Below are positions 5,775 through 62,100 of a DNA stretch of 64,000 nt, piece by piece. The position numbers and the translations under genes were made by a program. The DNA comes from Marsupella aquatica. Lineage: Eukaryota > Plantae > Marchantiophyta. A model generated the notes under the pieces. It was given only the letters and a program-made list of their open reading frames with translations, searched no databases and was not told the origin of the DNA. The stretch's first letter is position 1. Each line of letters opens with the position of its first letter. The stretch spans positions 16,182,576 through 16,246,575 of the forward strand of contig OZ316896.1 of NCBI GenBank assembly GCA_973895155.1. Reading direction: 5' to 3'.

Positions 5775-8401
5775 CAAGAGCCTAGCAACTAGCAAACACA
5801 CTCATGGCTATGCTCCATTCCATCATACACATGTGAAGCTATAGTAAGGTTTAGGGTTTAGTGTACTGAGTGGAGTGTCCAAGGACTACCATCATCCAAG
5901 TTCCTAGACAGACATGAATCCTTTCAGTGCACCCTGCTTCTCTTGACAAATGGGGCTATGGGTCCCCTAAACAATTTCTATGTGTTTGAGAGATTGGTCC
6001 TGTGTTGACAAGTGGGCTGTTAATAGATTAAACAGAAATGTGTGTTTAGGAGATTGGATGCCATAGCTATGCCAGAGGACCTTGTAGCACACAATTGCAG
6101 TACCCCTGCTAACAAAATTCTTTGAGCAATTGAATAAGAACGATGGAGCTTTTGTACCAAGCATAAGGGTCTCGAGTCTACAGTCCACTGAATCTTCTTT
6201 TGAGCAAGTGACAAAGAACTATGGAGCTTTGTACCCAAGCCAGACCCTACTCCACATTCCACTGAATCCTAAGTCCAAAGTAAGAAGCCAGAATCCAATA
6301 CTCAAGTAAGGATGAGCCAATTTTTTGCATGAGGACTAGTCCTATATTAAGCAGGTTGGCATTTTGTGAGTTGGCATTTTGTGAGTTTTGGCCATGGAAA
6401 GCGCAGGCGCAATTAACAATCCCAGAACCTACAAGAGACCTAAAGAATGTGGCAAGTTACTTTCTAATCTCCGCAAATATGAATAATTCCAATCTACTAC
6501 AATATTCCAATGTTGATATCAACATTGTGCAATGTGGCAAGCCACGGTTTGAAAGCACTACTCTCTAACCTCCATATGATCCAATTTTTGCCATCGACAA
6601 TGTTTCCATAGCCAAGATCGTCAACTACCCATGATTGTAGGGACTGTGATTGGAGATAGTTGGTGAATCTAAAAATGGAGGAAAGGAGAATTTCACTGGA
6701 TTGATCTGAAGGATTTCTGCAGGAATTTAACCAGGTCCGTGATCAAATCAGAAAGGGCTGAACTGAATTATTGTACACTGCTGGCCTGTCAATGTGGAAA
6801 GCCACGGATTTGAGGCCTTCCTTTCTGCACCTCGCACAGTAAAACTGATGTACAATTAGTTGTAGCGCAGCTCCAAGAGCTCCGTTTTCGAGGCAGACAC
6901 AGGCGAGGCCCCAGGCCAACATCGCCTGAAAGGACGCAAGCTCGAAACGCCGCAACTCTGAAAGGCGCAGCTGTTCAAAGATTTCGAAATATTCGATATG
7001 GTTTTCACGTCACCTGGGCTCAAATCTTGAAATTTGGGCTGACATTTCTGATGTATTAACATCGAACGGTTTTTTTTTTTGTTTTGGTTTTTTGGAACCA
7101 ATCCCAAATGAGCTTAGAGGAAAATACTGCCATCCCCTGAAAAAACGTAGGGCCACAGGACAGAAAGCTCGTTATGCATGCATTGTATTGTTCAGCCTTC
7201 AGGAGGTAACAGGACTTGATTTTTCAAAAGTGCGTAGATGTGTTGGGAATAGCAAATTACTGTAATCGCCTCACTGCTAGATACCTGTACGCAACATATT
7301 CCCGTCTCAAGCTCCCTACTTAGTGTCACGGAACGACATGGCACAGAGAGAGAAACATGAACCTACAGACGGAGCTCAGTAGGGATAGCAACCAGAAAAC
7401 ACTGTGTTTTCGTTCGTCGATCAATCCTGGATAGTTCCACAAGCTCAGCATTGTGTTCAAAAAGTGAAGGTTTGGCATCAGTGACTAGCAAATGTTCATT
7501 CAAACAGAAGAATCTGTTTGTGGTTGGTTACTTTCTTGGATATAGCTTGGAGCCCTGCCCCGATTAGTTACCATATATCTACTATATACTATATCAAATG
7601 GAAAATGCCGAGCCTTCAACGAATTATTTGACAATTCTGGCGCATGGTATCATCTTCCTCTGATTACCCTCATATGCTTTTGGATGCTAGTAACTACGTC
7701 AATTCTACTGCCGCATCCTCTTTGATTATTAGAATCATGACGCCTTCCCGCCAACAATTTTCATCAGCCCAACATGGTTTTCCTGACGAAACCGAAAATC
7801 TGACTCCGAGTTATCCATCTAGCTGATCGAAAATTTCTCTGCCCTGATTTTGATGGATGCATACACAACTCTTTCCATGAAATCTTGATTAAAGAAGGTT
7901 TTAAGGGAGCCATATTCCCTATGCGCCTAATCCCAAATCTACTTAATGTAGATCATCCAATTAAACCCTAAACGTTCATTTCCATCTAAAAAGTGCATGA
8001 ATTGTACTTTATTCCATTATTATTTTTGGATATAAGATAACATTAACTTAGGAATCTACCAAAGTTTAACTCTTAGATCTGAATCGTACGTCAGATTTAA
8101 GTTGGTTCGTCCTTCGCAAAAGTTTTAATTTTGAATGGGAATAAGCATTTCGAGAGTCATGATCACTTTGGCAGTCCTCTCATTCAGACCAATCGCTGAT
8201 AATTATTCGAACCAAACAGTCGTCAACTCTTAGTACCAGGATATAATCTAGCTCGAGCGCAAATTTTGACTTAGGTTGCTGATTTCATGCAGGAGGCTGG
8301 GCAACCACAGTACATGATCGCTTATATAGCAGTTTTCAAAATCGCTCTGCCCCTCTAGTTCCATCACTGGAATTCCAAATTTCATAGCAGTACAACTAGA
8401 G

Positions 8402-10789
8402 ATGGCGGCTTGTACCCAAAGGTTGACGTCCCCGTGTAGCAAAAACAACGAGGCAGCAGATCCAAACTCAAAGCCCGCGCAATGCTCGCCATGTTGCGTC
8501 AAAGGCCCAAAGCTTCCAAAGAAGAATTCGACGTCACTTCTATCACCAAATCATTACCAGGTGCCGAAAAAAAAGATAAGTTCGTGCTGCAGACGAAAAA
8601 CGGAGGAGGTAGAATACCTACATTACTCTGGGGACCAACTGGATGACGTCTTTGCAAACCCACCTAAGAAAAAGGGTTCCTGCTGTTCCTCAGGCAAGCA
8701 AACTCCAAAGAAAAGACGTCTATGTGCCTCCCGTTGTTCTTCAGGCGTGCAAACATCGCCAAAAGTATCAAATCAAATTTGTCAAAAACCCTACGTCAGA
8801 ACCCCTTCAACAAGTTTTCCAGGACCCCACTGTCATGGCGGGCAGTCGCCCTTAAGCCAAACGCACAAAAAAAATTCAGTAAATTTTTCTCCAATACCCA
8901 CCCAATCCCTAGCAGCCAGCCACAAAACACCAATTCTAGGCCAGTCTCCCACATCCCAAAGACGAAGAAAAGGTCCAGTATATTTCTCACAGCCTGGAGC
9001 TTCTCCAAAACCCACGTCCCAACCCCTCACTAGTTCACCCAAATCACCATCCAATGGCCAGCAACCGTCCAAAAAGGCAAATTCAAGGTGTTCATCCCGG
9101 CCAGAATCGCCATCAAAAGAGCTAGCTAGTTGCCCAAAATCCTGCTGCCAATTCCCTCCCTCGGCCCAACCTCCAAAACATTTCCACCTATATCGACCTG
9201 TATCTTGGCCTGCAGAAATCCCAACGGACTCAACCTGGAGGGATCTGACCTCGAGTGATTACGATCGCATAGATGGCCAGCCACCCTCTACACCACCGTC
9301 AACATCAGCAAGGCCATCCTCTGACTGCTTCGCCCAAAACCCACCCATCCCACGCCTCACTGCTGATGCTTGGACCTCGGCAACTTCCCCGATCATGCCA
9401 ACTTCGGCGGCACCAGACCCTCAACAACGTAAGTCAATCTTGAAACAATACCCAAGCACGGTGGCCTCGACCACGGTAGCATCCGCGACACCAGACCCCG
9501 AACAACTTCACACAATCCTGAAAGTATACCCAACCCAAAATGCGGGGCCCTCGGTCATGGTGGCATCCCCAACACTAGACCCTGAACAACTTCAGTCAAT
9601 CCTGAAAGTATACCCACGCCAAAATGCGGGGCCCTCGGTCATGGTGGCATCCCCAACACCAGACCCTGAACAACGTCAGTCAATTCTGAAAGTGTGCCCA
9701 GGCCAATATGCGGGGTCGATGGTGGCATCCCCGACACCGGACCCTGAACAACGTAAGTCAATCCTGCAACTCAGCCCAACCAAAAGGGCAGACGCCTCGA
9801 CCTCGATAGCATCCCCGACACAGACCCTGCCACCAGTGTATCACAAATCACAGACGATTCAGATGTGTAGCCCAACATTAGTTGTAAATTCCTCAGGCTC
9901 CACCAGGTCATGCTCAAGTTCGTCCAGCCGAGACAACTCGCCCTCAAGATTATCAAGTTCATGCTTTTTTTTTGCTCGATCTCCAAAACGCTCACGCCCA
10001 AGCCTAGCCACGTTAGATAGGAGCCCTCAGAAGTCGAAGTCTCTCCGCATCTCTGCCCCATCAGCAGAAGTATTACATCGCTCAACCTCAGCTTCATCAG
10101 AACTAGTCCCGAGAAATTGTCCCCAACATGCTCAGCAGGGCTCAAGATCGCGATCCGATGCAATGCCGCCACACTACGGTAAATTGCCCCTAAGACCACA
10201 AAGTGACCCTATCCCATCTACACATTACGAGCAGTCAGCCACTTCGAGCTATGATTCTCGAGCCCAAACAAGATCAAGGACAGGCCTACAAGATACTCCA
10301 CATGATCTCGAAGTCTCCAGTCTGAAAGACCTGACAACAACAGTTCAACAGAGTGAATCGCCCTCGAGACCACCGGCTAGTTCGTGGTTTAGGAAGCCCA
10401 GTTGCGCTGGACCATGGACAGCAAGAAACTTTTGGGCTCGCCTGTGGAATAAATCTACAAGCCTAACTTCAGCTGGATGCCGCTTACAGGACCTGGCATC
10501 TTTACTCAGTCCCATTCTCTCGGCATCGAAGGGTCCTGCGAATCCACAATATATCAAGGACCAGCGGTGGATTGAATGCAGTGATACCCGAGCGTTCTTC
10601 ATCTTTGGAGTCAATGTGGTCATTGTAATTTTTCTCACCTATTTTGTGGATCTACTGCACGATGGGAAACAAAAAGTAGAGGCTGTCAAGGCAGCTGATC
10701 ACAGTGATAACTCAAGGTGTTGCCATCACCAACAGCCACCTTCTCAGTATCGAGGCTATCCTGTGTACAATGTAGACATCATCAAGTAG
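8402..10789 (+). CDS. Intronless 795-aa Ser/Pro/Thr-rich protein with five ~26-28-aa internal repeats and a C-terminal transmembrane helix; function unknown
   Basis: 2.4-kb uninterrupted ATG-to-TAG frame. Repeats of type ASPTPDPEQRQSILKVYP at ~9400-9830. Hydrophobic segment FFIFGVNVVIVIFLTYFVDLL near the C-terminus. Confidence 0.7.
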   Translation: MAACTQRLTSPCSKNNEAADPNSKPAQCSPCCVKGPKLPKKNSTSLLSPNHYQVPKKKISSCCRRKTEEVEYLHYSGDQLDDVFANPPKKKGSCCSSGKQTPKKRRLCASRCSSGVQTSPKVSNQICQKPYVRTPSTSFPGPHCHGGQSPLSQTHKKNSVNFSPIPTQSLAASHKTPILGQSPTSQRRRKGPVYFSQPGASPKPTSQPLTSSPKSPSNGQQPSKKANSRCSSRPESPSKELASCPKSCCQFPPSAQPPKHFHLYRPVSWPAEIPTDSTWRDLTSSDYDRIDGQPPSTPPSTSARPSSDCFAQNPPIPRLTADAWTSATSPIMPTSAAPDPQQRKSILKQYPSTVASTTVASATPDPEQLHTILKVYPTQNAGPSVMVASPTLDPEQLQSILKVYPRQNAGPSVMVASPTPDPEQRQSILKVCPGQYAGSMVASPTPDPEQRKSILQLSPTKRADASTSIASPTQTLPPVYHKSQTIQMCSPTLVVNSSGSTRSCSSSSSRDNSPSRLSSSCFFFARSPKRSRPSLATLDRSPQKSKSLRISAPSAEVLHRSTSASSELVPRNCPQHAQQGSRSRSDAMPPHYGKLPLRPQSDPIPSTHYEQSATSSYDSRAQTRSRTGLQDTPHDLEVSSLKDLTTTVQQSESPSRPPASSWFRKPSCAGPWTARNFWARLWNKSTSLTSAGCRLQDLASLLSPILSASKGPANPQYIKDQRWIECSDTRAFFIFGVNVVIVIFLTYFVDLLHDGKQKVEAVKAADHSDNSRCCHHQQPPSQYRGYPVYNVDIIK
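9400..9830 (+). repeat. Coding tandem repeat, 78-84-bp unit, ~5 copies
   Basis: The motif gaccc(t/c)(g/c)aacaac(g/t)t..caat..tg(a/c)aa recurs at ~9412, 9491, 9575, 9659 and 9737; all spacings keep the reading frame. Confidence 0.85.
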
Positions 10790-12270: not shown

Positions 12271-14633
12271 TTATGTGCAATGGATATACTTTTTGATGAT
12301 TCCCATCATCTCAATACCTTGGAACCGTCCCAGGCAACCTCTGGCGGCAGCAATCTCATTGAATATTGCCACCGAATCTCCTGCCACTGGGGAGTGTTGG
12401 CAGTCATGAGTGGCTTTTGCATTCGCTCTTTCAGCAAGGGCTGCAAGGGCTGAAGATGCAACAATTGGCAGATTAATGGGGGACAGAGATGTGGCCAAGA
12501 TTGCTGCTTCACCTCCTCTGGCTTTCAAGAAATCATGTAAGTGACAAGTGGAGAAAGGGACGGGTTCAAAGCTGTGATCTCCATATTCAACTGGGGTTGA
12601 ATGATCCCCTGTTATTGCCAAGGTGTACTGGAACCGTCCATTTCTCTCCTCCTCCCAGAGCAAACGTGCAAGCTGTCCAATCATCACATCAACAGCTTCG
12701 AAGGCTCTTACTTTCAATTCGACAGCCTTGTCATGTCCAGCATCATCTATAGCCTGCAAAAGTTCTCCGAGACTAGTTAGGATTACAGACACAAGTTTCA
12801 AAATCATAAGGAAAAGAGGAGAGACTGACGGAATGAATGAATGTTTACGGTGCCCGGGGACCCAAAGAGGCATGAGATCAGCGATGTACAAAGATTAACC
12901 GCAGTCAGCTGAGAACCCTGAACAGAGACTTGAAAACACTAAATTTACCTTAATGTGAAGAAAGCCAAACTCGTATCCTTCAGGGCATCCAGGTCTAAGG
13001 TCCTCCTTTCCTGGGACAAAGATGCTTGGTGGTGACTTGGAAGGAGCTGCCAATGCACTGGCAATTGCCGTAGCCTTTGATGTCAAAAGGGTTCGATAAT
13101 CCCCCGTGGCACCTGGAGCATCCAGGATATCGATGCCTAAAGAGAGGCCCAAACCAGCGATAATTTTGGTGGGAGCGACCATACATGGGCGTAGGCCATG
13201 CTTACTTGCAAATGCTGGTACCTACATACATAAGTAAGGTATTACTTGGTTACAGACATTTATTAAAAGCTAAAAACATGTGTTGCTCAAAGAAAATGTG
13301 CTCGGTTGCACCTAGGATATCTGGAAATTGTCGGTGCATTAAATCCTCACCGCTACTTGATTGTTTGCTGTTACAAATGTAAGAGAAGAAAGCAAGACAC
13401 GCACCTCGATCCGAATTCCACAACCGCGAAGTAAAACAACATTTGCAATATTCTTTCCCTGGGCTTTGCGTTGGGCATTTAATGGATGTGATGACAGAAT
13501 ACGCCTCATTTCAGTAGAAAGCTCATTGACGACTGCTGCTGTATGCTTCGACTCCTCGGTCTCATCAAGGGCAGCAGAAACTTGCAAGAGTCGATTGTCC
13601 TTGAGAGGATCTGTGCCTGATATGTTCCCAGTCAAACCAGCACCTTTGACAACCACTCCACACCTATGTTCCGTTGCATATCTGAGCCACCGATCACCAC
13701 CACAGGGTCATGTCAGTCAGACTCAATGCTTCCCGATGTTAAACATTTGCCATGCTTACACAATGGTTCTAAGGAAGGCTAAAACGACGTAAGGAAAAGG
13801 TTTCCAGGAAAACAGATAAATCGCACTGACCAAATAAGAAGCTCATGTGCACCTTACACAAACCTGATACTTGGGATAAGAAGGCAACTTGAGCCCGTCA
13901 AGGGCAGCACATAGAATAGGACCCTCCTCTTCAAAACGCCGGTCCGCCCTCCTGCTCGTCACTGTCCCTGACCTCTCGTCTATAGTCGCAAAGTTGCTCT
14001 AAGAAAAAGAAAGAATCAGAAAATAGTCCTTGCATGCGGTTAAGATCCTCTGTCTGAGCAGAACTTCTGCAAAAAATGAAGGGGGAGATACATTCCATGC
14101 ATCTAACTGCAAAGAGGTAGAACACAGCCAACCTCAAATTACATGACAGCACCAGTCAAATCTCAGAAATTGGTTCCCGTAGTTCGTCCTAGGATCTAGC
14201 CAAGCCAAGCTACAAACATCCAATCGGGTGGTGGCCAGCATTCCAGAGAGAACTACAACATAGTTTTTTATAAAAAAACATGCTAGGGTTGAGGATATTC
14301 ACCCAGAATGCATACCTTGAATGCAATATCACCAGGTGACATGGCAAGCCCGGCTCCCAGGGATTCGAAAGCACCACGACCACGGTAATATGTGCGCGGA
14401 TCGTATCCCAACAAGGACAAATGCGCCGTGTCACTTCCGCAAGCGAGACCAGGCTCCACTGGATCCATTAGTCCGTTCACTCCTGCACTGGCTATGGCAT
14501 CCATGTTTGGCGTTGACGCTGCTTGCACCGGGGTACGAAATCCCAGGGATGGAATGCTCACATCCGCCAACCCGTCGACCAAGACCAGCACCACCCTCTT
14601 CTCAGGGCCACTTTCATTCTCAGCAATCGTCAT
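12271..14633 (-). CDS. Cofactor-independent phosphoglycerate mutase, archaeal ApgM type (metalloenzyme superfamily), 498 aa
   Basis: Five exons with GT-AG junctions: 14633-14316, 13998-13853, 13681-13405, 13221-12949, 12753-12271 (1497 nt, in frame). Motifs VLVDGLAD, CGSDTAHLSLLGYDP, YRGRGAFE, ATEHR, TDP, NVVLLRG, FLHIKAIDDAGHD, TGDHSTP and DHSFEPVP. Confidence 0.93.
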
Positions 14634-14971: not shown

Positions 14972-16684
14972 GAAACTGTTCGTATTGTATTAGCTCGTAA
15001 GCAATTGGGCATTTTGTGAGAAACAACTTTCTTTGCACATGTTTTTTTGTTATACCTGTTTCCATACTTAGCTTACGAATTAAAGGCGATTTTCACTCTA
15101 CTTATTAGCTTGACTATTTCTCAACATGTATCGCCAATTAGAGATGAGATCCTGGCCAGTGCTCAGCCTAAAACTTTATGACAACATAACTGCCCCATCC
15201 CTTAACTTATTTTGTGATTGTACATTTCTTAGCGTCAACTAGGAAATAAAGTCTACCGAGTATTAAGCTTGCCACATGTGTCCAGATGACACATGTTTTT
15301 ACTGACTTCGTGATGCCCATGTCTTAGATTTATTTAATAAGACTAGCTCATTACGGGTGTGTTGCACAAGAGATGGTGCGGCATAAAAGAGGTAAATGTA
15401 AAACCAATTAGTGCACAAAAGATGGCGTGGCATAAAATATGTGTGTAAAAATGTTCTTGCCCAAAAGATTTTATGGCATAGGAGAAGTCGTTGGGGAAAA
15501 GATATCATTAATGTCGTGGAGGAAAAGATGTTACATAACAAAAGTTGTTCGACAAAAGAGTTACTTGTGTAAATGATGCCATTGCATACAAAAGAGATTG
15601 TTCCAGAACAGTGTTGTGTTTAGTAATTCATAGCTCAAAAAATGTTGCATAAAAGATGTCATTGCACAAAGATGTCCAGAAGGAAAAGACATTGTTATCT
15701 AAATGAAATTGTTACGTAAAAGATGTCAAAGGCAGGCACTCTGGCAGTCTCATAAGAGGCTATATTTGGCCTTCAAGAAGAAAATGTGAAAGATTGGCCC
15801 ACTTGACTCACAAAAATGAGTTCAGTTTCAATTTGTGTTAAATGTCACAAACAAGATAACTCAGGATTGACATTGATGGGCCACTTTTGGAGCTTTGTGT
15901 AATTGGTGCACAATACCTGTATAAGAGCTATGGGCAACCTGGAGTTTTTATTATACATTGCACCGTGAAAATTTCCTTAGGAATGGACTTGAGCTCCACC
16001 TTTTACAATCAGTACACTGTTCACCACAGGCAGGAGTGAGCAGTAGCCAGCAGGACTATGGCCCTTTTATAGAGGCAGGTGTGGTACATTGCCTCTGGTA
16101 AGAGCATCTCCAACGGTTACGCCATTTGCTTACGCTACACATTAAATACAGCGCACCTCCGCTGCTTTTTTTAGGTTGCGCTAAAGCCCATGCGGGGTTT
16201 GTCAAAGTGCAACCCCATCGGTTACGCCATTTTTTGTGCGCGCCATTTTATTTGGACACGCGTCCAGCTGTCCAGCAAAGACGTGGTTGCTTGTATTGTG
16301 TTCGCCCCCTCTCTTCACGGAGGTCCACTCCGCAATGGCAATGTCCGATGTTGGGCTTTGGACATATGTGTGTTGACCTCTCACATCCATAATTTGAGCT
16401 TCTTGCTTCAAAGGTTTGCACCCTTTCGTCCACTGGACTTGGCATGTTGCCATTGAAGGCACTTGTCCACATTGGCTGAAATTGCTGAAGTTCGGCTGAA
16501 ATTGCTCTGCGACATCGATGGCACACTGCATCACAATGTCTTGTGGATTCCGAAGGAATCACCTGAAGCTTCATGGACACATAAGTCGTCTCTTGCCATT
16601 TCAACATTCACAGTTGTGCTTGAATTGTCGATTGATTGGCAATTTCACATCCTATTCGTCAATCAGCATTTCTGTTTGTGAGCT

Positions 16685-18003
16685 ATGGATCCCCCTCAAT
16701 TTCAACAATGGGTAGTTGATCGAGTTGGGTCCGACGATGACATAGAGGATGTTCATGCTGATCACATCAGCAATCTCTTGGAGGAAGGAGACATGCTTGA
16801 AGAGATGGCAGAGGTCTTGAATAGAACACATGGAGGGTCGACAATTGGCCGCTCCCCAAATATTTTGCGCGATCATGTCTCAGGGCATGACAGGATTTGG
16901 GGAGACTACTTTTCATCCTTTGCAGCTTTTCCACCTCATTTGTTCAGGAGGAGGTTTCGTATGAGAAGAGATTTGTTTATACGTATTCACAACAAAATTC
17001 TTCAGGAGGATGAGTACTTTGTGCAGAAGCCTGATGCAACCGGGAAAGTAGGCCTCAGCAGCATTCAAAAAATGACTGCAGCACTCAGGATGATGTGCTA
17101 CGGCTCGGCAGGGGATGCTGTCGATGAGTATGTTCGGATTGGAGAGTCTACTGCAATTGCTGCATTCAAGCACTTTGTGGAAGCCATTGTGAATTGTTTT
17201 GGCGAGGAGTACCTTCGGCACCCTACAGAGGAGGATGTGAGAAGGCATATGGAGATCAATCGAAAGTGAGGATTTGTTGGGATGTTTGGGTCACTTGATT
17301 GCACCCATTGGACATGAAAGAATTGCCCAATGGGTGAACAAGGACAATTTCGAGACAAGGATGGGTTGAATTCAATTGTACTCGAAGCAGTTGCCACTTC
17401 AGACTTGTGGATATGGCATGCATTTGCTGGAATTCCAGGATCAAACAATGACATCAACATCATTGATAGATCTCCATTGCTGGTCAACTTGTTGAATGGA
17501 GTGGCTCCTAATGTTGCCTTCTCTGTTAACGGGCATGACTACAAAATGTTCTATCTTCTTGCAGATGGAATCTATCCAGATTACACAATCTTCATGAAGA
17601 CTATTGCAGATCCCCAAGGAGCCAAAAGGAAATGGTATGCCAAGAGACAAGAATCAGTGCGGAAGGATGTAGAACGATGCTTTGGTGTCTTGCAGGCCAG
17701 ATTTGCAATGGTTAAGAACCCAGCACGATGGTGGAGTAGAGATCAAATGACATTGATCTGGAAAGCTGCAGTCATCATGCACAATATGATCATTGAGGAC
17801 GAGGCTGATGAATTTGACTTGACACATGATTATATGTTCGATAGAAATGATGTCCAGTGGCAGCACAGGCCATGACCTCGTGTCTCTTTTGCAGGACTGA
17901 CTCACAATATGGGGCTTATCGCCAATGCAACAAATGCAAACCAACTTCGAGATGACCTGGTTGAACATCTATGCAGATTAGAGGTGACGACGATGAGGAG
18001 TGA
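16685..18003 (+). pseudogene. PIF/Harbinger DDE transposase (HARBI1/ALP1-like), inactivated
   Basis: Motifs FRRRFRM, GMFGSLDCTHW, LEAVATSDLWIWHAFAGIPGSNNDINI, YLLADGIYP, QESVRKDVERCFGVLQARF and MHNMIIEDE. In-frame stops at 17267, 17315 and 17873, plus a terminal frameshift. Confidence 0.9.
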
Positions 18004-18370
18004 CACTCCGAGTGATAGAGTGACGATTTGAGTGAGGGTACACATTAGACAGGGCCAAGCTTGACGTACAGAGTCTCTAGTTCGGAGGAATTGTATTTGA
18101 CTTTATTTATATAAATTTCTCCACCATACCTTTTACTTGTGCAAAATTGAAGGACTTCAATGGATTTCTGGAATGTGAGTTTATGAATGCCACGACAACC
18201 TAGTCATTCATCTCATATGAGGTTGCAAAGTACATTAAATCGCAATGCATTGACAATGCAATGAGCAGTAAGTTGTAGCTGGAATATCTGGTCCAGGCCA
18301 TATGAATAAATATCGTGATCAGACATACAATGTGTGCAATGGTTTGTGAAATGAATGTTCTGTTTGCACA

Positions 18371-18934
18371 CTACATGAAAGAGTACAAGTTTCTAATATC
18401 CTGGTATTGGAGAGCAGTCCCTGAAAAAGAATCCATCTGGTTCGGACTCTGACTGTCTAGGGGAGTATCGTTTTCATTTGCAAAGTCTCCTCCTACTGGA
18501 GGTGATTCCTCAATGTCCTCACCGTCGTCAGCATCCTCTTCATCTTCGATCCTTTCATCGCTCGGGAAGAGTGCAGAGTTGCATTCTCTGTTTGCAACAT
18601 TGGGCGAAATGTTCTCTTGGTGAACTGGAATCGTCGGTGAGAGCAAGGGTTCGTCCCTGGAGGTTTGCACAGATTTAAGGTGCTTCATGAGCTGTAACTC
18701 TGCCACCTCCCTCTTCAGTTTCAAAAACTTTTGAGCCTGCAGGTCCAGGTTGTCCATGTTCACAGAGAATAGCTGGATCTCATAAACATCCTCCATAGCA
18801 CGAGCCCTCCGATTCAAAGCAGCGGCAATCTCTGATGTGGAATCGGCCAATGAACTCCTGCTCTTGGCAGCCTTCCTTTCTAGAGCAGCCAACTCCTTGG
18901 CTTTCTTGTTACCAATTGGGCGATCAGTAACCAT
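18371..18934 (-). pseudogene. PIF/Harbinger ORF1 C-terminal part (NAM-associated-like domain), 5'-truncated
   Basis: RPIGNKKAK motif followed by a coiled segment and IQLFSVNMDNLDLQAQKFLKLKR. Convergent with the transposase. The N-terminal Myb/SANT part is not visible. Confidence 0.7.
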
Positions 18935-20898
18935 TTCTGGTGTAGCAATTTTGTTACGGTAACGGGGTTTAGGACATTTTCTGGTGGTCGCATTTTGTCA
19001 ATAGGACAGTTTTCTACCAGGAATAACTTGTGTGCCCAAAGAGATGGAGGAATACCCTTTTGGATTAATTTTCTAGGATCCTATCAAAAATTCTATAAAG
19101 AAATTGAGTTTGATACAATCATTCATGTGTGGCCCAATAAAAAAATCCTGCTCAGATGCTGAAATTTCTCCCATGCATTAAAGAATGGTGCTTTCTACAA
19201 GGGTTTGCTAGGTAAGAGCTGTAGCCGGTTTGCTCTATTGAGAGGTACCCAACTACAAATAAAAAAACTACAGAATTTCGTCCTTCTCTTAGAGAGGGCA
19301 TTGGGAGTAAAAAGCTTTACTGGCCATAGATTTTGGTGTAATGTGTTAATATTGAGGTCTCAAAAAATGGACGTCACGCATCATCTCCATGACTTTAAGA
19401 ATATTTGGGTACCAAGAGGAGCCCACTAGATGGAGCCACAATGGAATCTGACTCGAATCTGGCTCGTGTAACAAACTTGACGTACTCGCGTTGGAGTACT
19501 ACTCCAGATGAAAAATCCCCACTAATGATTTGAGTGGGGTAAGATCAACCTCGAATACTCGAGAAGGCTGAAGATCTATGGAACCCCAACCTAACTTTGC
19601 GCTCACCACAACCTGCATTTTTAAGACGTGCATCCAAGCCAGCTATTCAGCATTATAGGGTTTCTCAAGCCACGTCATGCCAAGGATAGTTTCTGCATAG
19701 CCTGCAAGAGATTGCTTAGTATTCCCAGCTCTATGAATACAGACCACCATTCCTTTGGTTGCATGTTTATGGCCCCAATTGTCAATTCACACGGTTGGAT
19801 TTTAACTACATGCGTAATGCTGTGGATCATTTCTGCACGTTAGTCACATGTTGGAATTTGACGACATGCTTACTGTTGTGGATCATTCCTACACGTTAGT
19901 GACCTGAATTTGACAGTTGGCCTAATTATACTGGAAGATATACCATATTTTCAGTTACAGTGCTGCACTATCTATGTAATTCCTTGTTGCACTTTCTTTG
20001 ACAGACCATTTCCAGGTCGTGTATCTGTGCCATATTTTCTAATGAAACTGGTCGTTGGTTTTCGATTTGTGGTCAAGTTGCCTATACTTTAATCAAGTCA
20101 GCAACTAACCAAGCTTGCCAACAAAGCTCCACATCACATGTGCAACGAACCCCTCAATACAATCAACCTGTACAGCCTATTCAAAAGTGCGCGGTTCACT
20201 TGCAGGAGATCAGTAGGCTATTGTGATGCAAGTTCCGTACTTGTATCTTGAACTTCTGTTATACATTTAATTCTCCTCAATCATAGTACTATCCATTGTC
20301 ATAGTTTCTTCTAATACCACACGAGGAAGTGGTCACACTGCACCATTATGTACTAGTCTGCCTATGCTTCTATTTGTGATATTGTGGACATAAAGTTTGA
20401 AAACAAGATCACTTCCGATGCCAGCGACTTTCCTCTCTACCTTAAGATCAGCAACCCCCATCGGCTTACCAACTCAGCTGTCCCCCTGTTGGGGAAACAA
20501 ACAATTGTGTCCCACGGATTGACAATTTTCAGAACATGAAGATCGTTTGGAGAGCTATGGATTCTTATATTGCAGCGTAAATTGAACGGTTGAACTCTAG
20601 TAAAGCAAAAGAGAAACCCTTCCTCGTGAACAGAAGGTGCTAACCATCTGAAGTCACATGTGTATTTGTGAGCCATAGCAGTGGGTTCGGAAGGTCTGTC
20701 AATGGAGGAAATTACGATGAGCTGAAGGAAGTAGGAATTCTACCCCATGGGCCGGACAATCCCTTCATGGATCTCATTCCTACTTTACTTCTCGGATACT
20801 ATCCAGCGAGGTGAACGTATCCTCCCAAAATACACAGCAAAACTGTGAGAACGCCCTCAACTGCTTGCATCACGAGTTGTCTCTGATGCAAGATTCAC

Positions 20899-24562: not shown

Positions 24563-25608
24563 ATGAGTGATTCGGAGGAGATTTTCAAAGATGTGGAACT
24601 TAAAGCAAGAGGATCACCGCGGTGTTTGAGGGGGAGAGAGAGGAGCAGGAGGAAGAGCGCGTGACACTGGAACCATCACTAGTGCGGCGTGTGGTGGAGG
24701 AAGCAGTACTACTACCGGAGCTCACGGTAGTGCCAAAGAAGAAGATGGGTATGTTCAAGCTTGGGGGACCCAAGTATGAAGTGACAAAGTATGATGGGCG
24801 CTTTGACTACTTGCTATGGGAGAAGCAGGTGAAGGGAGTGCTATATGCGTCAGGGATGGGCCAACTGTTGAGCCCTCGTGAAGACGATGTTGATGAGAAA
24901 CAATGGGACCGCATGTAGGAGCAGGGAGTGTGGTGTGTTACACTCTATCCGGGACTCTATCTCATGCCTAGCTCCCATCATCAAGCAATTGGGTGCACAT
25001 AAGGACTGTATGTCCTTGTTTGTGGAATTGCAGAGCAAGTATCACCGCAAGGAGTTGTCGAACCGGTTGTATACTTCCTACAAACTGATGAGTTTCAGGA
25101 TGAAAGAATTCGGTACGAAGTTGCAGGACCATGTGGATGCTTTCATCGACATGGTCGTTGACTTGGAAAACCTTGGGGAGACTTTGAATGATGAGACGAA
25201 GGCTCTGCAAGTTCTCAGTTCATTGCCTCCATCTTATATTAGTCCCTATCACGGGTGTTGTTGCATCGTGATAGGAATTCCATTTCATACAATGAAGTGG
25301 TAAGTTCTCTGCTTAGTGATGATCTTCAGCAAAAGATGCACATCACGTCACAACCTTCATCATCTGGTGCTGCCCTTAATGTTAACCGTGGGAGGAGTAT
25401 GCAGCGACCAACTAGGGACCGTAGAAACCAATTTAGATCTAAGTCCAGGGGTAAATCCCCTCAGAGGAGGCAGGTGACATGTTGGAAGTGCAACCAAATT
25501 GGACACTTCAAGCGAGACTGTAAGGGAAAGGCAGTTGAATCTTCATCGGTAAATATGGCTAGGGCTGATGGAGACGCTGATTTACTCAACGATGAGTATG
25601 TATTATGA
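24563..25608 (+). pseudogene. Copia gag, with frameshifts and stops
   Basis: KYDGRFDYLLWEKQVKGVL, LQVLSSLPPSY and a zinc knuckle CWKCNQIGHFKRDC. Confidence 0.85.
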
Positions 25609-29099: not shown

Positions 29100-30729
29100 C
29101 TTGTTACTGATGATGAGGGTGATGCATTAATTTTGGAAGAAGGGGAACCTTCTTCATTTCATGAAGCAAGTGCTTCAAAGGAGAAGTAGGAGTGGATTGC
29201 AGCAATGCAAACAGAGATGCAGTCATTGAAGGACAACAAAACTTGTGAGTTTGTCAACCTGCCTGAGGGACAGCAAGTGGTGGATAGCAAGTGGATATAC
29301 AAGTTGAAGGATCAGTCCATGGGAGGTGGATCGAAGGTCTACAAGGCTGTTGGTAGCCAAGGGATTCACACAAGAAAAAGGTGTGGATTACAATAAGGTC
29401 TTCTCATCAGTTGCTAAGTACTCAACAATACGGCTATTGTGTGTGCTTGTTGTTATGTTTGGTCTGCTGCTAGATCAGATGGATGTTGTCACAACTTTCC
29501 TCTATGGCACCTTGGAAGAGGTCATCTTCATGAGACAGCCGCTAGATTTTGTGAAGAAAGGACAAGAGGATTTGGTTTGCAGATTGCTAAGATCCTTGTA
29601 CGGGTTGAAGCAATCACCAAGACAGTGGAATAAGCGATTTGATGATTGGATTCATGCACAAGGCTTTCACAGGAGTGTGTTTGACCCATGTGTGTATCTT
29701 AAACCGGTGAAGAATGTTGTCTTTGGGTTCATTGTTTTAGTACTTTATGTGGATGACATGCTTATTGCGGCCAAGGATAGGTCTGAGATTGTTAAGCTCA
29801 AGGCACTACTAAGTGCAGAGTTTAATATGAAGGACTTAGGGCTAGCTAACAAGATTTTGGGTATGGAAATCACTAGGGACTTGGAGGCTGGCAAACTATG
29901 GTTGACGCAGAGCAGTTATGCGAGGAAGGTAATTGCAAGGTTCAACATGGGGGATAGCAAGCTAGTAAGTACCCCGTTGGCTCCACACTTCAAGTTGTCA
30001 TCAGCTTTCTGTCCTACGGATGACACAGAGAAGGGGCTGATGTCAAAGGTTCCTTATAACAAGGCAGTGGGGAGTTTCAAGTATTTGATGACTTACACTA
30101 GACCTGATTTTGCCATGGCTATGGGCAAGGTGAGCAGGTACATGTCAAATCCAGGGAAGGTACATTGGAAAGTAGTGAAATGGATTATTTGGTACGTGAA
30201 GGGTACCATGGATCATGGTCTATTGTTTGATGCACATGTTGATAATGCTAGATCATTGATGGGCTATGTAGATGCTGACCATGCACAGGATCTGGATCGA
30301 AGGAGGTCAACAACAGATTATGTGTTCACACTTGGCGGTGGATGCATAAGTTGGAGGTCAACTTTGCAGAAGTGCATTGCTCAATCTACAACACAAGCGG
30401 AGTATGTTGCAGCAGCGGAAGCAGCAAAGGAAGCGATTTGGTTGGATAGACTGATCACTGAGATGAGATTGCCATAGGGGAATGTGAGGCTTCATTATGA
30501 TAATCAGAGTGCACTCCACCTAGCTGTGAACCAGGTGATGGACAGCAAAGTGAAACACATTGACGTCAGGTACCATTTTATCAGGCAAGCTATGTCTGAT
30601 AATATGTTTGAGCTAGTCAAGATTGACGGTAAACTCAACCCGGCTGACGCTTTTACCAAAGTGATTCCTTTGGAGAGTTTTTCTATACACTGTGATGCGT
30701 TGCAGGTTTTGCAATTGCCTCACAAGTAG
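29100..30729 (+). pseudogene. Copia reverse transcriptase and RNase H
   Basis: KWIYK, LVAKGFTQ, QMDVVTTFL, LYGLKQSPRQW, LYVDDML, GYVDAD, STTQAEY, DNQSA, KHIDVRYHFIR and NPADAFTK; one frameshift and stops. Confidence 0.92.
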
Positions 30730-47268: not shown

Positions 47269-47889
47269 GGGTGCTACTTTACTGAAAGGTAACCCGGACG
47301 GCAATCATTCAGTCTCCCTCCACTCCAGTCATTCATCCCGATTGGTGTCATTCATCCCGATTGGTTCTCTCTCTCTGTGTCTCTCCTCGTCGTTCACCTC
47401 GATGCATCGCTGAACGAAATCAAGGGATCCACTTCGCTTTGTGTGAAGCAAGGTCGACCTCTTCCCGTCGTCCGTCCTGTCGCTCTGCCGGGAGTCAGAG
47501 TCCATGTTTGGAAGGCAAACAGCAACAAACTAAAAACGCTGGACCTCGAGTAGGGCGAAGATCTCCGCTGTGGAATTTGGGTTTTGTGGAATTTGAGTGA
47601 TTGCACCGGCAGTTTGGGTGTGGGACGGAGCGGAATTCGATCTGGAGGTTTTGGAGAGAGGCGTCGCGGGTAGGACGCCTTCTCATCGAAGGTGCAGTTA
47701 GGTTGCCGTGGGCAGGATCGTTGCGGGAGATTGGCGGAATGGAAGCCGTGGAATGTGAACGAGGGATGTCTCCGGAGTGCGTCCATTTTCTTTAGTTCGC
47801 TACTGTACTGTTGTTTCTCAAGGGCCTATTCCCGCCGGAATTCCATTAGATCGAGTTAAAGGGCGAAAGAGGGGCGTCGGGGAGCAGCA

Positions 47890-48426
47890 ATGAGGATGCT
47901 GGCTGAGGTAATGGCTGCCGGCGTGCATGCATCAGACAGTAAAGCCCTGAACACCGCGCAAGATGGGACTGTATCGTTCTTCTCGAATACTCCCATTGTG
48001 GCTGCGTTCTTCTCGTTCGCCTTGGCCCAGAGTCTGAAGGTCTTCATGACCTGGTACAAGGAGAAGCGTTTGGATTGGGGTCGTCTTCTTGGCCCAGGGG
48101 GGATGCCTTCTTCCCACTCCGCAACAGTGATGGCTTTGGTGGTTTCAATTGGCTTGAGGGATGGTCCTGGGAGTTCTATGTTTGCTATAGCTCTTGTGCT
48201 TGCCGGAGTTGTCATGTATGATGCATCTGGTGTCCGACTACAAGCTGGTCGTCAGGCGGAGGTGTTGAATCAGATTCTTTGCGAGCTGCCTCCAGAGCAC
48301 CCACTGTTTGACTCCAGGCCTCTTCGAGACATGCTTGGCCATACGCCTATTCAGGTGGCTGCCGGGGCCGTGCTGGGCTGTGTGCTGGCCTTCATGCTTC
48401 ACCTCCTTGAGTATGTCGCCCGTTGA
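47890..48426 (+). CDS. DUF212 / acid phosphatase-vanadium-dependent haloperoxidase-related membrane protein (YuiD-like), intronless
   Basis: AQSLK, GGMPSSHSATV, VMYDASGVRLQAGRQAEVLN and LGHTPIQVAAGAVLG. Confidence 0.92.
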   Translation: MRMLAEVMAAGVHASDSKALNTAQDGTVSFFSNTPIVAAFFSFALAQSLKVFMTWYKEKRLDWGRLLGPGGMPSSHSATVMALVVSIGLRDGPGSSMFAIALVLAGVVMYDASGVRLQAGRQAEVLNQILCELPPEHPLFDSRPLRDMLGHTPIQVAAGAVLGCVLAFMLHLLEYVAR

Positions 48427-58416: not shown

Positions 58417-58841
58417 GACGCCGGTGTGGTCGCTAGAACCTGTCAGCGACAAACGAACAATTGCCCGGAAGCACAACAAGAGCCAAAACACAATCAGAAA
58501 TCTCCTTCAAAACTCAGGCATCCAGCCAGTAACTGGCCAAACCACAGGCATGAATAAAACCCTAAGGAGATTCACATGAATGCAAATCAGCCGAAGTATC
58601 GATACATCCGAGTTTCCCCCGCCCCACAGCAAGGGCCGAGAATTGGCAATTGATTTTCGTCTCCTAAGAGAAAAGAGACTCACTGCCTCAGGAGTCTGAA
58701 GCGGCAGCCTGAGAAGCTCTCCGCCAGTCTCAGAGGGTCTCCGCCAAGTAAAACAGCAGAAGAAGGAGAAGGGGAAGGAGGATAATCGAGGGGCGAAGAA
58801 GCTTGCCAAGCCCTAACAACCTTATCCGCTTGCTTGCTTCG

Positions 58842-59084
58842 CTAAGACCGGGAGAAGTCGGAGTCGAAGGCGAATGGGGAAGCGGGGCGCAGGAAAAACG
58901 CGAACACGGAGCAGAAGAGGCAGAAGAAGAGCACGGACAAGTACACGAAGCCGAACCAGAGCACGAAGGAGACGTTGAGCAGGACCCAGAATGACAGGAA
59001 GCTCCACGAGTTCACCGGCAGTCCGTCGCAGATCGAATTGAGAACCAGAAACAACGACGAGAAGGTCGCGACGTCAGCCAGCAG
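58842..59084 (-). CDS. Candidate non-AUG (CUG)-initiated 80-aa hydrophobic uORF or micropeptide in the ISU1 leader
   Basis: Open frame LLADVATFSSLFLVLNSICDGLPVNSWSFLSFWVLLNVSFVLWFGFVYLSVLFFCLFCSVFAFFLRPASPFAFDSDFSRS*. Most codons end in C or G. No ATG in frame or anywhere in 58684-59416 on the minus strand. The start codon is inferred. Confidence 0.5.
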   Translation of the reverse strand: MLADVATFSSLFLVLNSICDGLPVNSWSFLSFWVLLNVSFVLWFGFVYLSVLFFCLFCSVFAFFLRPASPFAFDSDFSRS

Positions 59085-59099
59085 TTCGCTCTGCTTGAT

Positions 59100-59163
59100 T
59101 GCCTGCCTGCTTGCTTGCTTGCTTCCTTCCTTCCTTCGTTCCTTCCTTCCTTCCTTCCTTCCT
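59100..59163. repeat. Compound tetranucleotide microsatellite (GGAA)n(GCAA)n(GCAG)n on the minus strand
   Basis: tgcc/ttgc/ttcc runs immediately 5' of the candidate uORF. Confidence 0.85.
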
Positions 59164-62100
59164 TTTTCTCTCAAATTCGATCCAAAATCCCAAATCCAAA
59201 ACCCCCCAAATCGTATTTCGTTTCGTGCAGTTCCAGCAGCACTGGTTCAATGCGTGAAACAATCAATCACACCTCAAATCCGAGCAATTCACTTCAGCGA
59301 ATCGATCAGTACTCGAATCAGATCAGCCTCCGCAGCAAAACAGGGGAGAGCAGAAGAAGAAGAGAACACAGAGAGATTGCGGGGAAAACAAGAGGAGAGG
59401 AGAGGAGAGGAGAGGACATTAGAGGCGGAAAGCATTAGAGGGAGAGGGCGACGTTCTTTGAGGGTGGAGGGGGCAGGGGGCGGAAACCCGGAGGGTAAGG
59501 CAAAGACACCTTTTGACGTGGCCACTTTTGTACCTTCTCGACGCCGCTTGTCTTGTCGACGAGGGCCCCCCGGACAAGAGTGGTCCTTCTATTCTATTCG
59601 AGTATCACTTTTATCGATATGGAAGAACCAAAACCCTTTATTAATTAAGTACAAGAAGGGCCCAAAGTACAATGAAGGGAAAGTCGAGTCACTCCAGCTC
59701 CAAATTCTCCAAATCTCGGGACACTGGAAGGTGGACATAATTTACAAAAGCGCCAAACAAAGTCCAATGAAGGGAAGCAAATTAGGTCCAAAGAGAGCAA
59801 ACACTAAAACAATTTATAGTCTTATAGTCGTCAATCACTTACTGTGGGTACTAGTGTGCCCAGACTTGTCCCCCTAGACTACATTCCTGTCCCAATTGCA
59901 GATTTAGTTAAAACACTGTATGTGGGCCATTATCTCTTGTCACATTTGTTTTAGATGTGGACCTTAGTCCATCCCACTAGTTAAGAATTAAAATATATAT
60001 TCCCCTTTTTTCTTTTCTTTTTCTTTAGAGGCACACTTGCCCTTCTTTTTCTTGTTTGGTGTTTGTCCTCTTTGGAACTCTTTCACTTTCCCTCATCGGA
60101 CTTTGTTTTTCCCCTTTTTTTACAACGTATGGTTCTTTGTTAATTAAAAGAAGAGGCAAATGAAACCCCCACAAATTTAGGAAGAGAACAAATAGGGACA
60201 GCTACCCACTGCAATAGTGTGATGAACCATAGTTCACATCTAACAGAAAAATGTTAGGAGCTAATGGTCCACATCTAGCACCTAACTAAAGTGAGACATG
60301 GATGTACTCTAATGGGACAAGACTTTGTGTAGGCCCCAGAGTGAGTGATTTACAATAGATTGTCTGAGCTTGAGCACATTATAATGTCACTGAAAGTTGC
60401 CAACGCCAACTAAAGTGCATAGTCAAAACACATAGTGGTAGTTATAAACTGTAAACTTGCTTACCTGAGTGAACAATGGCAGTTGAATTGTTTTAATTTA
60501 TCTTGACTAGTATGCAATGTTGCTCTTTCTTTTTCTCAGTTCTGTTTACTCAATGTTATCTGGATATTTTAACCAAAGTATCTAAACTAGTATGCAAGTT
60601 GGATGTTTCTTTCTCAAGTCTATTTACTAAATGTGATTCAGGCAGGAAGTCTTATGGTGAATTTTCATAAGCATGACAGGGGCGTAGATTCTTCCCCCAG
60701 GAAAAATATGAGCAAAAATAAAAACCAATCCACAAAAACCCTGTACCCATTATTATATGCATTGACATGTTTATGATCCCTTGTTGAATATATATTCCAA
60801 AAAATGTGTTTCCAAAGTAGGAGTTTTAAGTACTTTAGTATAAGTAATAGCCCAACCGGGCTAAAACTAGAATTCATGTGTTCCTCATTTAAATTATATC
60901 CAATGAGTGATTCCCAGGGGGGCACTCTCCCCACAACTCTAACACTCCTTGTAATCAAGCTGCCAGGCCAACTAATCATCTCCATGTAGCGTCTGCCGCC
61001 TGGCCACCTCACTTATGCTCAAAATCACTTATTAAGGACTATACTATGCAACGAATGGGCTAATTTATCAATAAAATGCATTTCATTGCACCCCAAAGCA
61101 AGTCGCAGCTGATGGACCTTGCAATAAAGATGTACCTCGGATCGATGTCCCTCACCTGCTTTATAGTCACAAGGAGAGAAAAAGACATGAGGGGCTACCC
61201 AATTGAGCTGGGGACATCTTGAACCACTCTTCCTTTGGGCATTAAAAAATTCTCAAATGCAATTGGAATCAATGGTCATTAGTTGCCCTTTTAACACTTA
61301 AAGTGGAGCTTGAGACCTTGAGTTGTTGTTGAGAAATCAGCTCAAAAGATGATCATCCACAATCATCCACTAGACTGGGTTTTACTGTACGAGAATGTTA
61401 GTCCTCATTAAATGATACCTTTTGTAAATACCTAGATCACGCCCATTTACTGTAGGTTGCGGGACCCTACCTGAATTTATGCTTTCGGACAATAATACTT
61501 AATAATATTGACCACGGCAACTTGTGATGTAAGCTTTGGTTCTCCACCACATGATTGCACCTTTACTAAGTACTCTCGATGTCACACGTCGAATAGATGG
61601 ATTCGTTTAGGTGGTGGAATGGGACTGTCTTCCACATAGAACATGGGGTTTACTCACTACATTTGCTTTAATGTAATCTCTTAGGAGTAGCTATAGGGGG
61701 TCAATTTGGAGTCCCTGTGCCACACATTGGGCACACTCCAATGTGTGCTAATCCTCAGCTTTTGAGGTGCCTGAGCAGGGTGCAGCCTTTATGGCCCACC
61801 CATCACGCACAAAACACAAGACAATCTGTTTTATGCTTTGTTTTGACCTGATTTGACTGTAAGTTTTGAGAACAGTGAGGTAATTTGTCAACTCTGGAAT
61901 CTTTTCTGTCATCCACTTTGCAGGGGAAAAAGCTATGTTCTGAAATTCTACCATGTCAATTACTATACAAGCGATGAAACATGAAATTATATGGGAGGAC
62001 GATTGAAATTTTAAGGGTGATGATTAATGCCTTCAATGTAAGAATAAAGGCATGCAAAATTTTAAAACTTTCGATTCCACAACAAAAATAATGATCTCAG

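Follow-up and report, generated by a model that had tools for sequence, protein, structure and literature searches.

An AUG-less 80-codon reading frame under apparent coding constraint in the alternatively spliced leader of the liverwort ISU1 gene

Introduction

Several upstream open reading frames of plants that encode conserved peptides (CPuORFs) begin at near-cognate codons in the leader, among them that of GGP/VTC2 and the CUG-started uORFs of RAPTOR1B and MASP1 (10.1101/2021.03.25.436978; PMC6380273), and in Arabidopsis, CUG uORFs are known to repress in a sequence-dependent manner (10.1101/2021.03.25.436978). Leader splicing that removes or truncates a uORF has been described for Medicago HAP2-1 and Ceratodon PHY2 (cited in PMC7284334), two Arabidopsis CPuORFs have their stop codon spliced out (PMC6380273), and in the AS-sORFs of Physcomitrella the choice of leader splice site sets the presence of the full uORF (PMC6724668). 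The leader of the metal-related Arabidopsis gene ZIF2 combines 5'-UTR splicing with a sequence-dependent uORF (10.64898/2026.02.12.705568); further background comes from PMC9305500 and 10.1101/2022.10.07.511279. An ESUCA-type criterion for wide conservation of a CPuORF is presence in five or more orders.

Here, we describe a reading frame without AUG in the leader of ISU1, the Fe-S scaffold gene of the liverwort Marsupella aquatica. With the non-AUG CPuORFs above it shares a putative near-cognate start in the leader, signs of purifying selection and a predicted repressive effect on the main ORF that depends on the peptide sequence; it differs in being longer (80 aa), of membrane type, split by the main splice donor and located on a liverwort Fe-S scaffold gene, with a suboptimal CUG context and no sequence likeness found. 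As in HAP2-1, PHY2, the Arabidopsis CPuORFs and the AS-sORFs, the choice of leader splice site appears to decide on the full uORF, but none of these, in the accessible parts of their sources, combines initiation at a non-AUG codon with a membrane peptide and selected intronic codons, and none concerns ISU. The ZIF2 leader involves an unrelated gene and peptide, and its uORF is not stated in the accessible text to cross a splice site. The bicistronic CDC26-TTM3 transcript, which carries a microprotein and a main ORF, likewise places a conserved small protein above an unrelated main ORF in one transcription unit; there, the small protein is AUG-started, of a known family and on the normal mRNA, whereas the ISU1-leader peptide belongs to no known family and would occur on minor forms only.

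No case of a plant ISU gene controlled by an upstream ORF was found in the open-access literature searched, where neither the combination of ISU1, iron-sulfur, uORF and alternative splicing nor six motifs of the peptide led to a paper. The accessible parts of the supplements of PMC7106846 and PMC6380273 contain no mention of ISU, which weighs little because both are angiosperm surveys. The ORF looks like a genuine coding element, apparently not described before, whose layout is unusual, and it would offer a concrete handle on the post-transcriptional setting of mitochondrial Fe-S scaffold output. Selected coding sequence that lies inside a usual intron and lacks an AUG is missed by annotation pipelines and protein databases. 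The layout also suggests a reason for non-AUG starts, namely a start codon held in common with the main mRNA, and a peptide acting in trans would represent a new membrane-protein family.

Results

The ISU1 Locus and the Sequences Compared

The window analyzed is a stretch of 64,000 nt of M. aquatica DNA, in which the ISU1 (IscU/NifU_N) coding sequence occupies 58416–57591 of the minus strand (exons 58416–58119, 57981–57927 and 57744–57591), as placed by a Pfam match (PF01592, E 1.5e-30) and contig joints. The 168 aa product is 92% identical to that of Calypogeia fissa, 87–88% to that of Marchantia and 72–79% to those of the mosses and vascular plants compared, and its coding sequence has a GC3 of 0.56.

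Contigs from public sequencing runs served as comparison material, and 10 runs were found to match. We compared four of the six related RNA-type runs (X1, X2, X4 and X6, from three studies) and one of the four near-identical runs (X7, which may itself be the origin of the DNA analyzed); the RNA type of the former is an automated guess, and their contigs do join ISU1 exons. The relatives sampled are a few related liverworts representing two ISU lineages only. In our reading, the variant listing omits differences within about 30 nt of alignment ends. The start codon, C19 and the stop codon of the relatives fall in this blind zone, with one to three unlisted changes per relative.

An 80-Codon Frame Without AUG

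The ORF spans 59084–58842 of the minus strand, comprises 80 codons and a TAG stop, opens with CTG CTG, contains no ATG and is predicted to encode a membrane micropeptide. The original prediction described the leader 59416–58684 as devoid of ATG, which was borne out, and placed the only nearby ATGs in an intron, which was not: two more lie at 59419 and 59435, just beyond the leader boundary that it had assumed, and open frames of 33 and 48 codons that both close before the 80-codon ORF. The tandem CTG that it took for the beginning of the ORF, following a microsatellite, is present, but the frame stays open further upstream, to 59246 (134 codons), through the repeat. This length-variable GAAG/GCAA microsatellite (59164–59092) lies just upstream of the conserved block and is 45 nt shorter in X4 (record coordinates). 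Since X7 shows 0 differences from the window over 58822–59092, the CTG is not an assembly error. The ORF is offset from the ISU1 frame in both splice forms, has its own stop and is not an N-terminal part of ISU1.

The strong C/G bias at third positions, claimed at the outset, held: GC at codon positions 1, 2 and 3 is 0.46, 0.40 and 0.88, and the contrast between GC3 and GC12 is the highest of 5,899 stop-free 80-codon segments in six frames across the whole window. Four-fold third positions carry G 20, C 19, T 4 and A 3 times, and the commonest codon is TTC (14 of 80). A TTC-microsatellite relic was considered and rejected, as the ORF contains no tandem repeat and G and C are about equal at four-fold sites.

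Evolutionary Constraint on the Frame

Relatives show 27 distinct changes in the ORF, and 16 of these are synonymous compared with 9.6 expected (p about 0.003) under a null in which each type of change is placed at random on the same reference letter. The change at 58860 becomes non-synonymous once its neighbor is counted, which leaves 15 of 27 (p 0.013). Splice constraint may act on two of the three changes located at the main donor; without the donor-site changes, 14 of 23 are synonymous (p 0.004). In the ORF frame, pN/pS was 0.16 (X4) and 0.19 (X6), calculated from 26 of the 27 rows, with 58994, which adjoins a compensating indel pair, left out. The ratio was about 1.0 and 3.6 in the remaining two sense frames, i.e., no constraint, and 0.33 in the in-register antisense frame, with a new stop, a weaker shadow of the kind expected. 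A ratio below one, by which the original prediction proposed to judge the frame, was thus obtained (pN/pS 0.16–0.2, p 0.003–0.013), in a sample of few species.

Indels follow the same frame. X6 carries a 12-nt insertion at the codon boundary after codon 72, adding four residues to the tail in frame, and a +1/−1 indel pair inside the ORF, in a contig of depth 3, restores the frame; indels of 1–2 nt occur just below the stop. Residue swaps are conservative (V/L, L/I, F/L, S/C/A), of the membrane-helix type, with constraint along the whole length, and several of the listed changes are private to M. aquatica. Divergence inside and outside the ORF did not differ significantly (Fisher p 0.10 and 0.15).

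A second ISU lineage, more distant than the first, matches 58993–58910, while its ISU targeting-peptide region no longer aligns. Its loose contig ends, read by hand, stay in frame with synonymous changes (V-N-S-W-S-F, F-L-R, P-F-A-L-D-F). The tie of this lineage to a second ISU consists of co-varying contig depth in four runs, with no joint contig; because no second copy of the element was found in X7, the lineage may represent co-sampled liverworts and not a paralogue. Taken together, the comparisons make it highly probable that the ORF is under coding constraint, as judged from relatives in few species. As in a CPuORF, the frame lies in the 5' leader, is under apparent selection and is independent of the main frame, in four related runs and two lineages.

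Alternative Splicing Within the Frame

All four related runs, which come from three studies, have contigs in which 59016 is joined to the acceptor region near 58444. The main leader intron, 59015–58440, contains codons 24–80, and its donor separates codon 23 (Pro23) from codon 24 (Val24) where the hinge of the two helices is predicted; junction letters of this splice are visible in loose contig ends of X1 and X6. The original view of an AUG-less membrane-peptide uORF in the leader is upheld by the conserved substitution pattern and has to be revised in one respect: in relatives, the main splice removes codons 24–80, because donor 59015 sits inside the ORF. The GT of this donor is present in M. 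aquatica, where 59015 would probably be the main splice as well.

The exon 59089–59016, which holds codons 1–23 (59084–59016; predicted helix 2–20), is common to all leader forms seen and is joined to ISU1 exons in single records of X1 and X2 and in junction records of X4 and X6, which bears out the supposed linkage of the frame to ISU. In X2, the exon carrying codons 1–23 has 3 differing letters of 74, compared with 19 of 326 in the first ISU1 coding exon.

A shorter intron, 58683–58440, had been proposed for this leader. It keeps the whole ORF and, if retained, holds four ATGs before the ISU1 start. An X6 contig ends exactly at 58684, in agreement with this donor and as the one contig behind it, but it is not the main intron, given that 4/4 runs use 59015. 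The distances calculated for this form were right: the ORF stop lies 158 nt above the UTR junction, and the 80-codon CUG frame ends 181 spliced nt before the ISU1 AUG. After the main splice, the CUG frame here would be 39 codons long, extending across the ISU1 AUG in a different frame, and full retention of the leader would place four more AUGs between the CUG frame and the ISU1 start.

Contigs of the close lineage keep the ORF region in two of the four runs. The X4 contig (58510–59045) has a depth of 75, compared with about 910–940 on the spliced path, and the X6 contig (58684–59045) a depth of 147, compared with about 940 upstream; whole-frame forms amount to ~1/10 to 1/3 by contig depth, a rough and poor measure. 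DNA carry-over is an unlikely source, because both ISU1 coding introns are without cover in all four runs while the leader intron is covered in two. Among the related runs, no contig spans both the whole ORF and the ISU1 coding sequence. The complete 80-codon frame appears to survive only in minor forms, produced by the 58683 donor or by a retained intron. On a rough matrix of our own, the leader donors score 0.1 and −1.4 (weak) and those of the coding introns 3.3 and 5.6. Second-lineage contigs break at about 58955 (X1, X2 and X4), adjoining another weak GT, a hint that this lineage may also splice inside the ORF, at a different codon.

The location at an alternatively used donor raises the question of a non-coding, pyrimidine-rich splicing-control element, of which PTB-type sites are an example, that merely mimics a hydrophobic ORF. 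The intronic part of the ORF is indeed 72% pyrimidine and 6% A, with only two AG dinucleotides, and the prevalence of TTC fits such an element. Nevertheless, we consider it very unlikely: the excess of synonymous changes persists when the null is matched for mutation type, the base counts at four-fold sites are unlike those of a TTC-repeat relic, tandem repeats are absent and indels keep the frame. The RNA is also unremarkable in structure, as folding was weaker than in shuffles (z +0.5 to +2.1) and Rfam returned three matches, all far below gathering scores.

The Putative Translation Start

The tandem CTG CTG (59084–59079) is the candidate start. The first CTG has G at −3 and the second has G at +4; neither context is optimal, and both are suboptimal under the scheme in 10.1101/2021.03.25.436978. 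Similarity to X1, X2 and X6 extends no further upstream than 59089–59092, 5–8 nt above the first CTG, which suggests a start at this point, with CUG as the putative initiation codon. The near-cognate codons themselves are verified only in M. aquatica (X7). A hairpin below the CUG was looked for and rejected (z +0.5 and +0.9).

In the relatives, the frame might be an ordinary uORF or a small gene with an AUG start, while M. aquatica alone has CTG or starts further up the 134-codon frame; we consider this unlikely. The start codon of the relatives falls in the alignment-end blind zone, so that a change from CTG to ATG could be among the unlisted ones. M. aquatica alone carries several of the listed changes, and the upstream indels of X4 add up to −15 and −45, both divisible by three, which has a chance of about 1 in 9. 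Against this, a uORF begun by an AUG in the shared exon would, in X1, X2 and X6, overlap the ISU1 start out of frame (hand-read junctions), and an AUG-started 80-aa ORF would be likelier to appear in protein collections, where none was found. The end of likeness 5–8 nt above the CTG also weighs against this reading, and the X4 contig, which begins near 59326, has no joint between about 59326 and 59016.

Structure of the Peptide and Searches for Relatives

An AlphaFold2 model of the 80-aa peptide from a single sequence (mean pLDDT 77.8) comprises a helix of residues 2–20, a three-residue hinge, a 42-residue helix of residues 24–65 and a loose tail. The long hydrophobic helix (codons 24–65; 59015–58890) includes residue 48 and the C55-L-F-C58 motif (58922–58911), present as first described. 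The tail (codons 66–80; 58889–58845) has a P-F-A core in both ISU lineages in hand-read alignments; it had been called acidic, a description that two Asp residues (D74 and D76) do not justify.

Several relatives have His at residue 48, where M. aquatica and X6 have Tyr; this residue lies on one helix face with residues 55 and 59. Where visible, C55 is without a listed change in three contigs and C58 in two. Positions 39 and 59 vary between Ser and Cys among relatives, which weakens the CxxC argument, and a Foldseek search of the PDB gave 0 matches to a known fold. A link of the peptide to metal, Fe-S or redox status is a guess from its location in the host gene. By extension, the leader CUG could give rise to a second membrane microprotein, switched on by skipping of the hinge donor, whose His/Cys face (48, 55 and 58/59) would bind a metal or Fe-S intermediate and feed back on ISU1 as a sensor of mitochondrial Fe-S assembly; we regard this as quite unlikely.

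Protein searches with the peptide returned two candidates and 0 matches among 5.8 billion proteins of 44–140 aa, and phmmer against 1.84 billion representatives gave 0 matches at E ≤ 0.001, with no longer protein containing the peptide. The in-register antisense frame yielded no candidate in the protein search. Pfam found nothing real in the ORF or three alternative frames (best for the ORF: US6, E 1.3, 9.4 bits, with a cut-off of 27), and the ESM Atlas gave no named match and three unnamed clusters at 0.80–0.82, i.e., at chance level. A pattern scan of prokaryote genomes for the peptide gave 0 matches. One metagenome DNA match (L001; 52 of 64 parts, among the matches listed) reached 54% over 24 residues; its surroundings are phage- or bacteria-like, and it was judged a chance match.

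Models of Function

The peptide is constrained throughout, and its residue swaps are conservative ones of a kind typical for membrane helices; together with the confident single-sequence model of a helix pair (mean pLDDT 77.8), this would fit a stable microprotein that is made from the minor splice forms and acts in trans, as a subunit of an organelle membrane or as a feedback regulator, with the CUG keeping its level low and sparing ISU1. The GC3, far above that of the host coding sequence, and the varying tail length point the same way, and the spliced uORF intron of Medicago HAP2-1 offers a precedent (accessible part of PMC7284334). The absence of a homologue from both protein collections, of any Pfam, atlas or PDB match and of a known partner speaks against it, and a minor form with a weak start would yield little protein. 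This reading, possible and on balance doubtful, is a close rival of the one that follows.

We tentatively favor a CUG-started CPuORF in which 5' splice-site choice controls the presence of the full length; its peptide is predicted to act in cis as a repressor of ISU1. The main mRNA, spliced at 59015 in relatives and presumably here, would keep codons 1–23 and a variable tail; the majority of ribosomes would bypass the weak CUG, and ISU1 would be made by leaky scanning. Minor forms, seen in two relatives, keep the whole frame. On these, ribosomes that start at the CUG would make a two-helix nascent chain, leading to slowing or stalling and perhaps docking the mRNA on a membrane, and scanning to ISU1 would be blocked. 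A stop codon more than 50–55 nt above a junction can trigger NMD, and the 158 nt found here would correspond to such a geometry. The use of CUG rather than AUG would be explained by the position of the start in an exon shared with the main mRNA, where an AUG would be expected to cripple ISU1 on the main form too. A brake in cis on total ISU1 would be limited, because the whole frame sits on minor forms.

The tail tolerates the four-residue insertion near the stop, which many arrest peptides do not, and this counts against an arrest peptide acting in cis.

Splice sites of the ISU1 leader

At the acceptor of the ISU1 leader intron (58445-58444, minus strand), the related liverworts carry ~24 nt more than Marsupella aquatica, and comparison of the contigs placed their splice site 18 nt farther upstream. 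This ~24-nt stretch appears, from the sequences compared, to have been lost in M. aquatica, where the predicted leader acceptor would be the AG at 58441-58440. Read by hand in the ISU1 frame, the additional exon letters of the relatives give the peptide E-L-F/I-N-R-T, and the differences between the sequencing runs X1/X2, X4 and X6 are mostly synonymous. This pattern hints at either a short non-AUG N-terminal extension of ISU1 or tandem acceptors.

In three runs, contigs of the second, more distant ISU lineage end at one common point (58956-58955, minus strand). A weak GT adjoins this break, and the second lineage possibly uses a different main donor within the same AUG-less micropeptide ORF.

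Antisense frame over the ORF

A stop-free plus-strand frame of 343 codons (58846-59877) lies antisense to the ORF and in register with it, extending ~790 nt past it. The frame is partly a shadow of the ORF's G/C-ending codons; it had no Pfam match, and a search with its first 80 codons found no homologue.

Other features of the window

An intronless ORF (47860-48426, +) appears to resemble DUF212 acid-phosphatase/haloperoxidase-like proteins, and we take an exon at 12271-12894 (-) to resemble the C-terminus of a cofactor-independent phosphoglycerate mutase. Interrupted ORFs at 16682-18997 (+) resemble a Harbinger/PIF transposase and its partner. Fragments at 24872-25303 and 29308-30477 (+) are presumed to be Copia-like retrotransposon gag and reverse-transcriptase/RNase H. 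Finally, a Ser/Pro-rich ORF of 819 codons (8330-10789, +) contains internal repeats of ~30 residues each, of the ASPTPDPEQ type, and a hydrophobic stretch close to its end.
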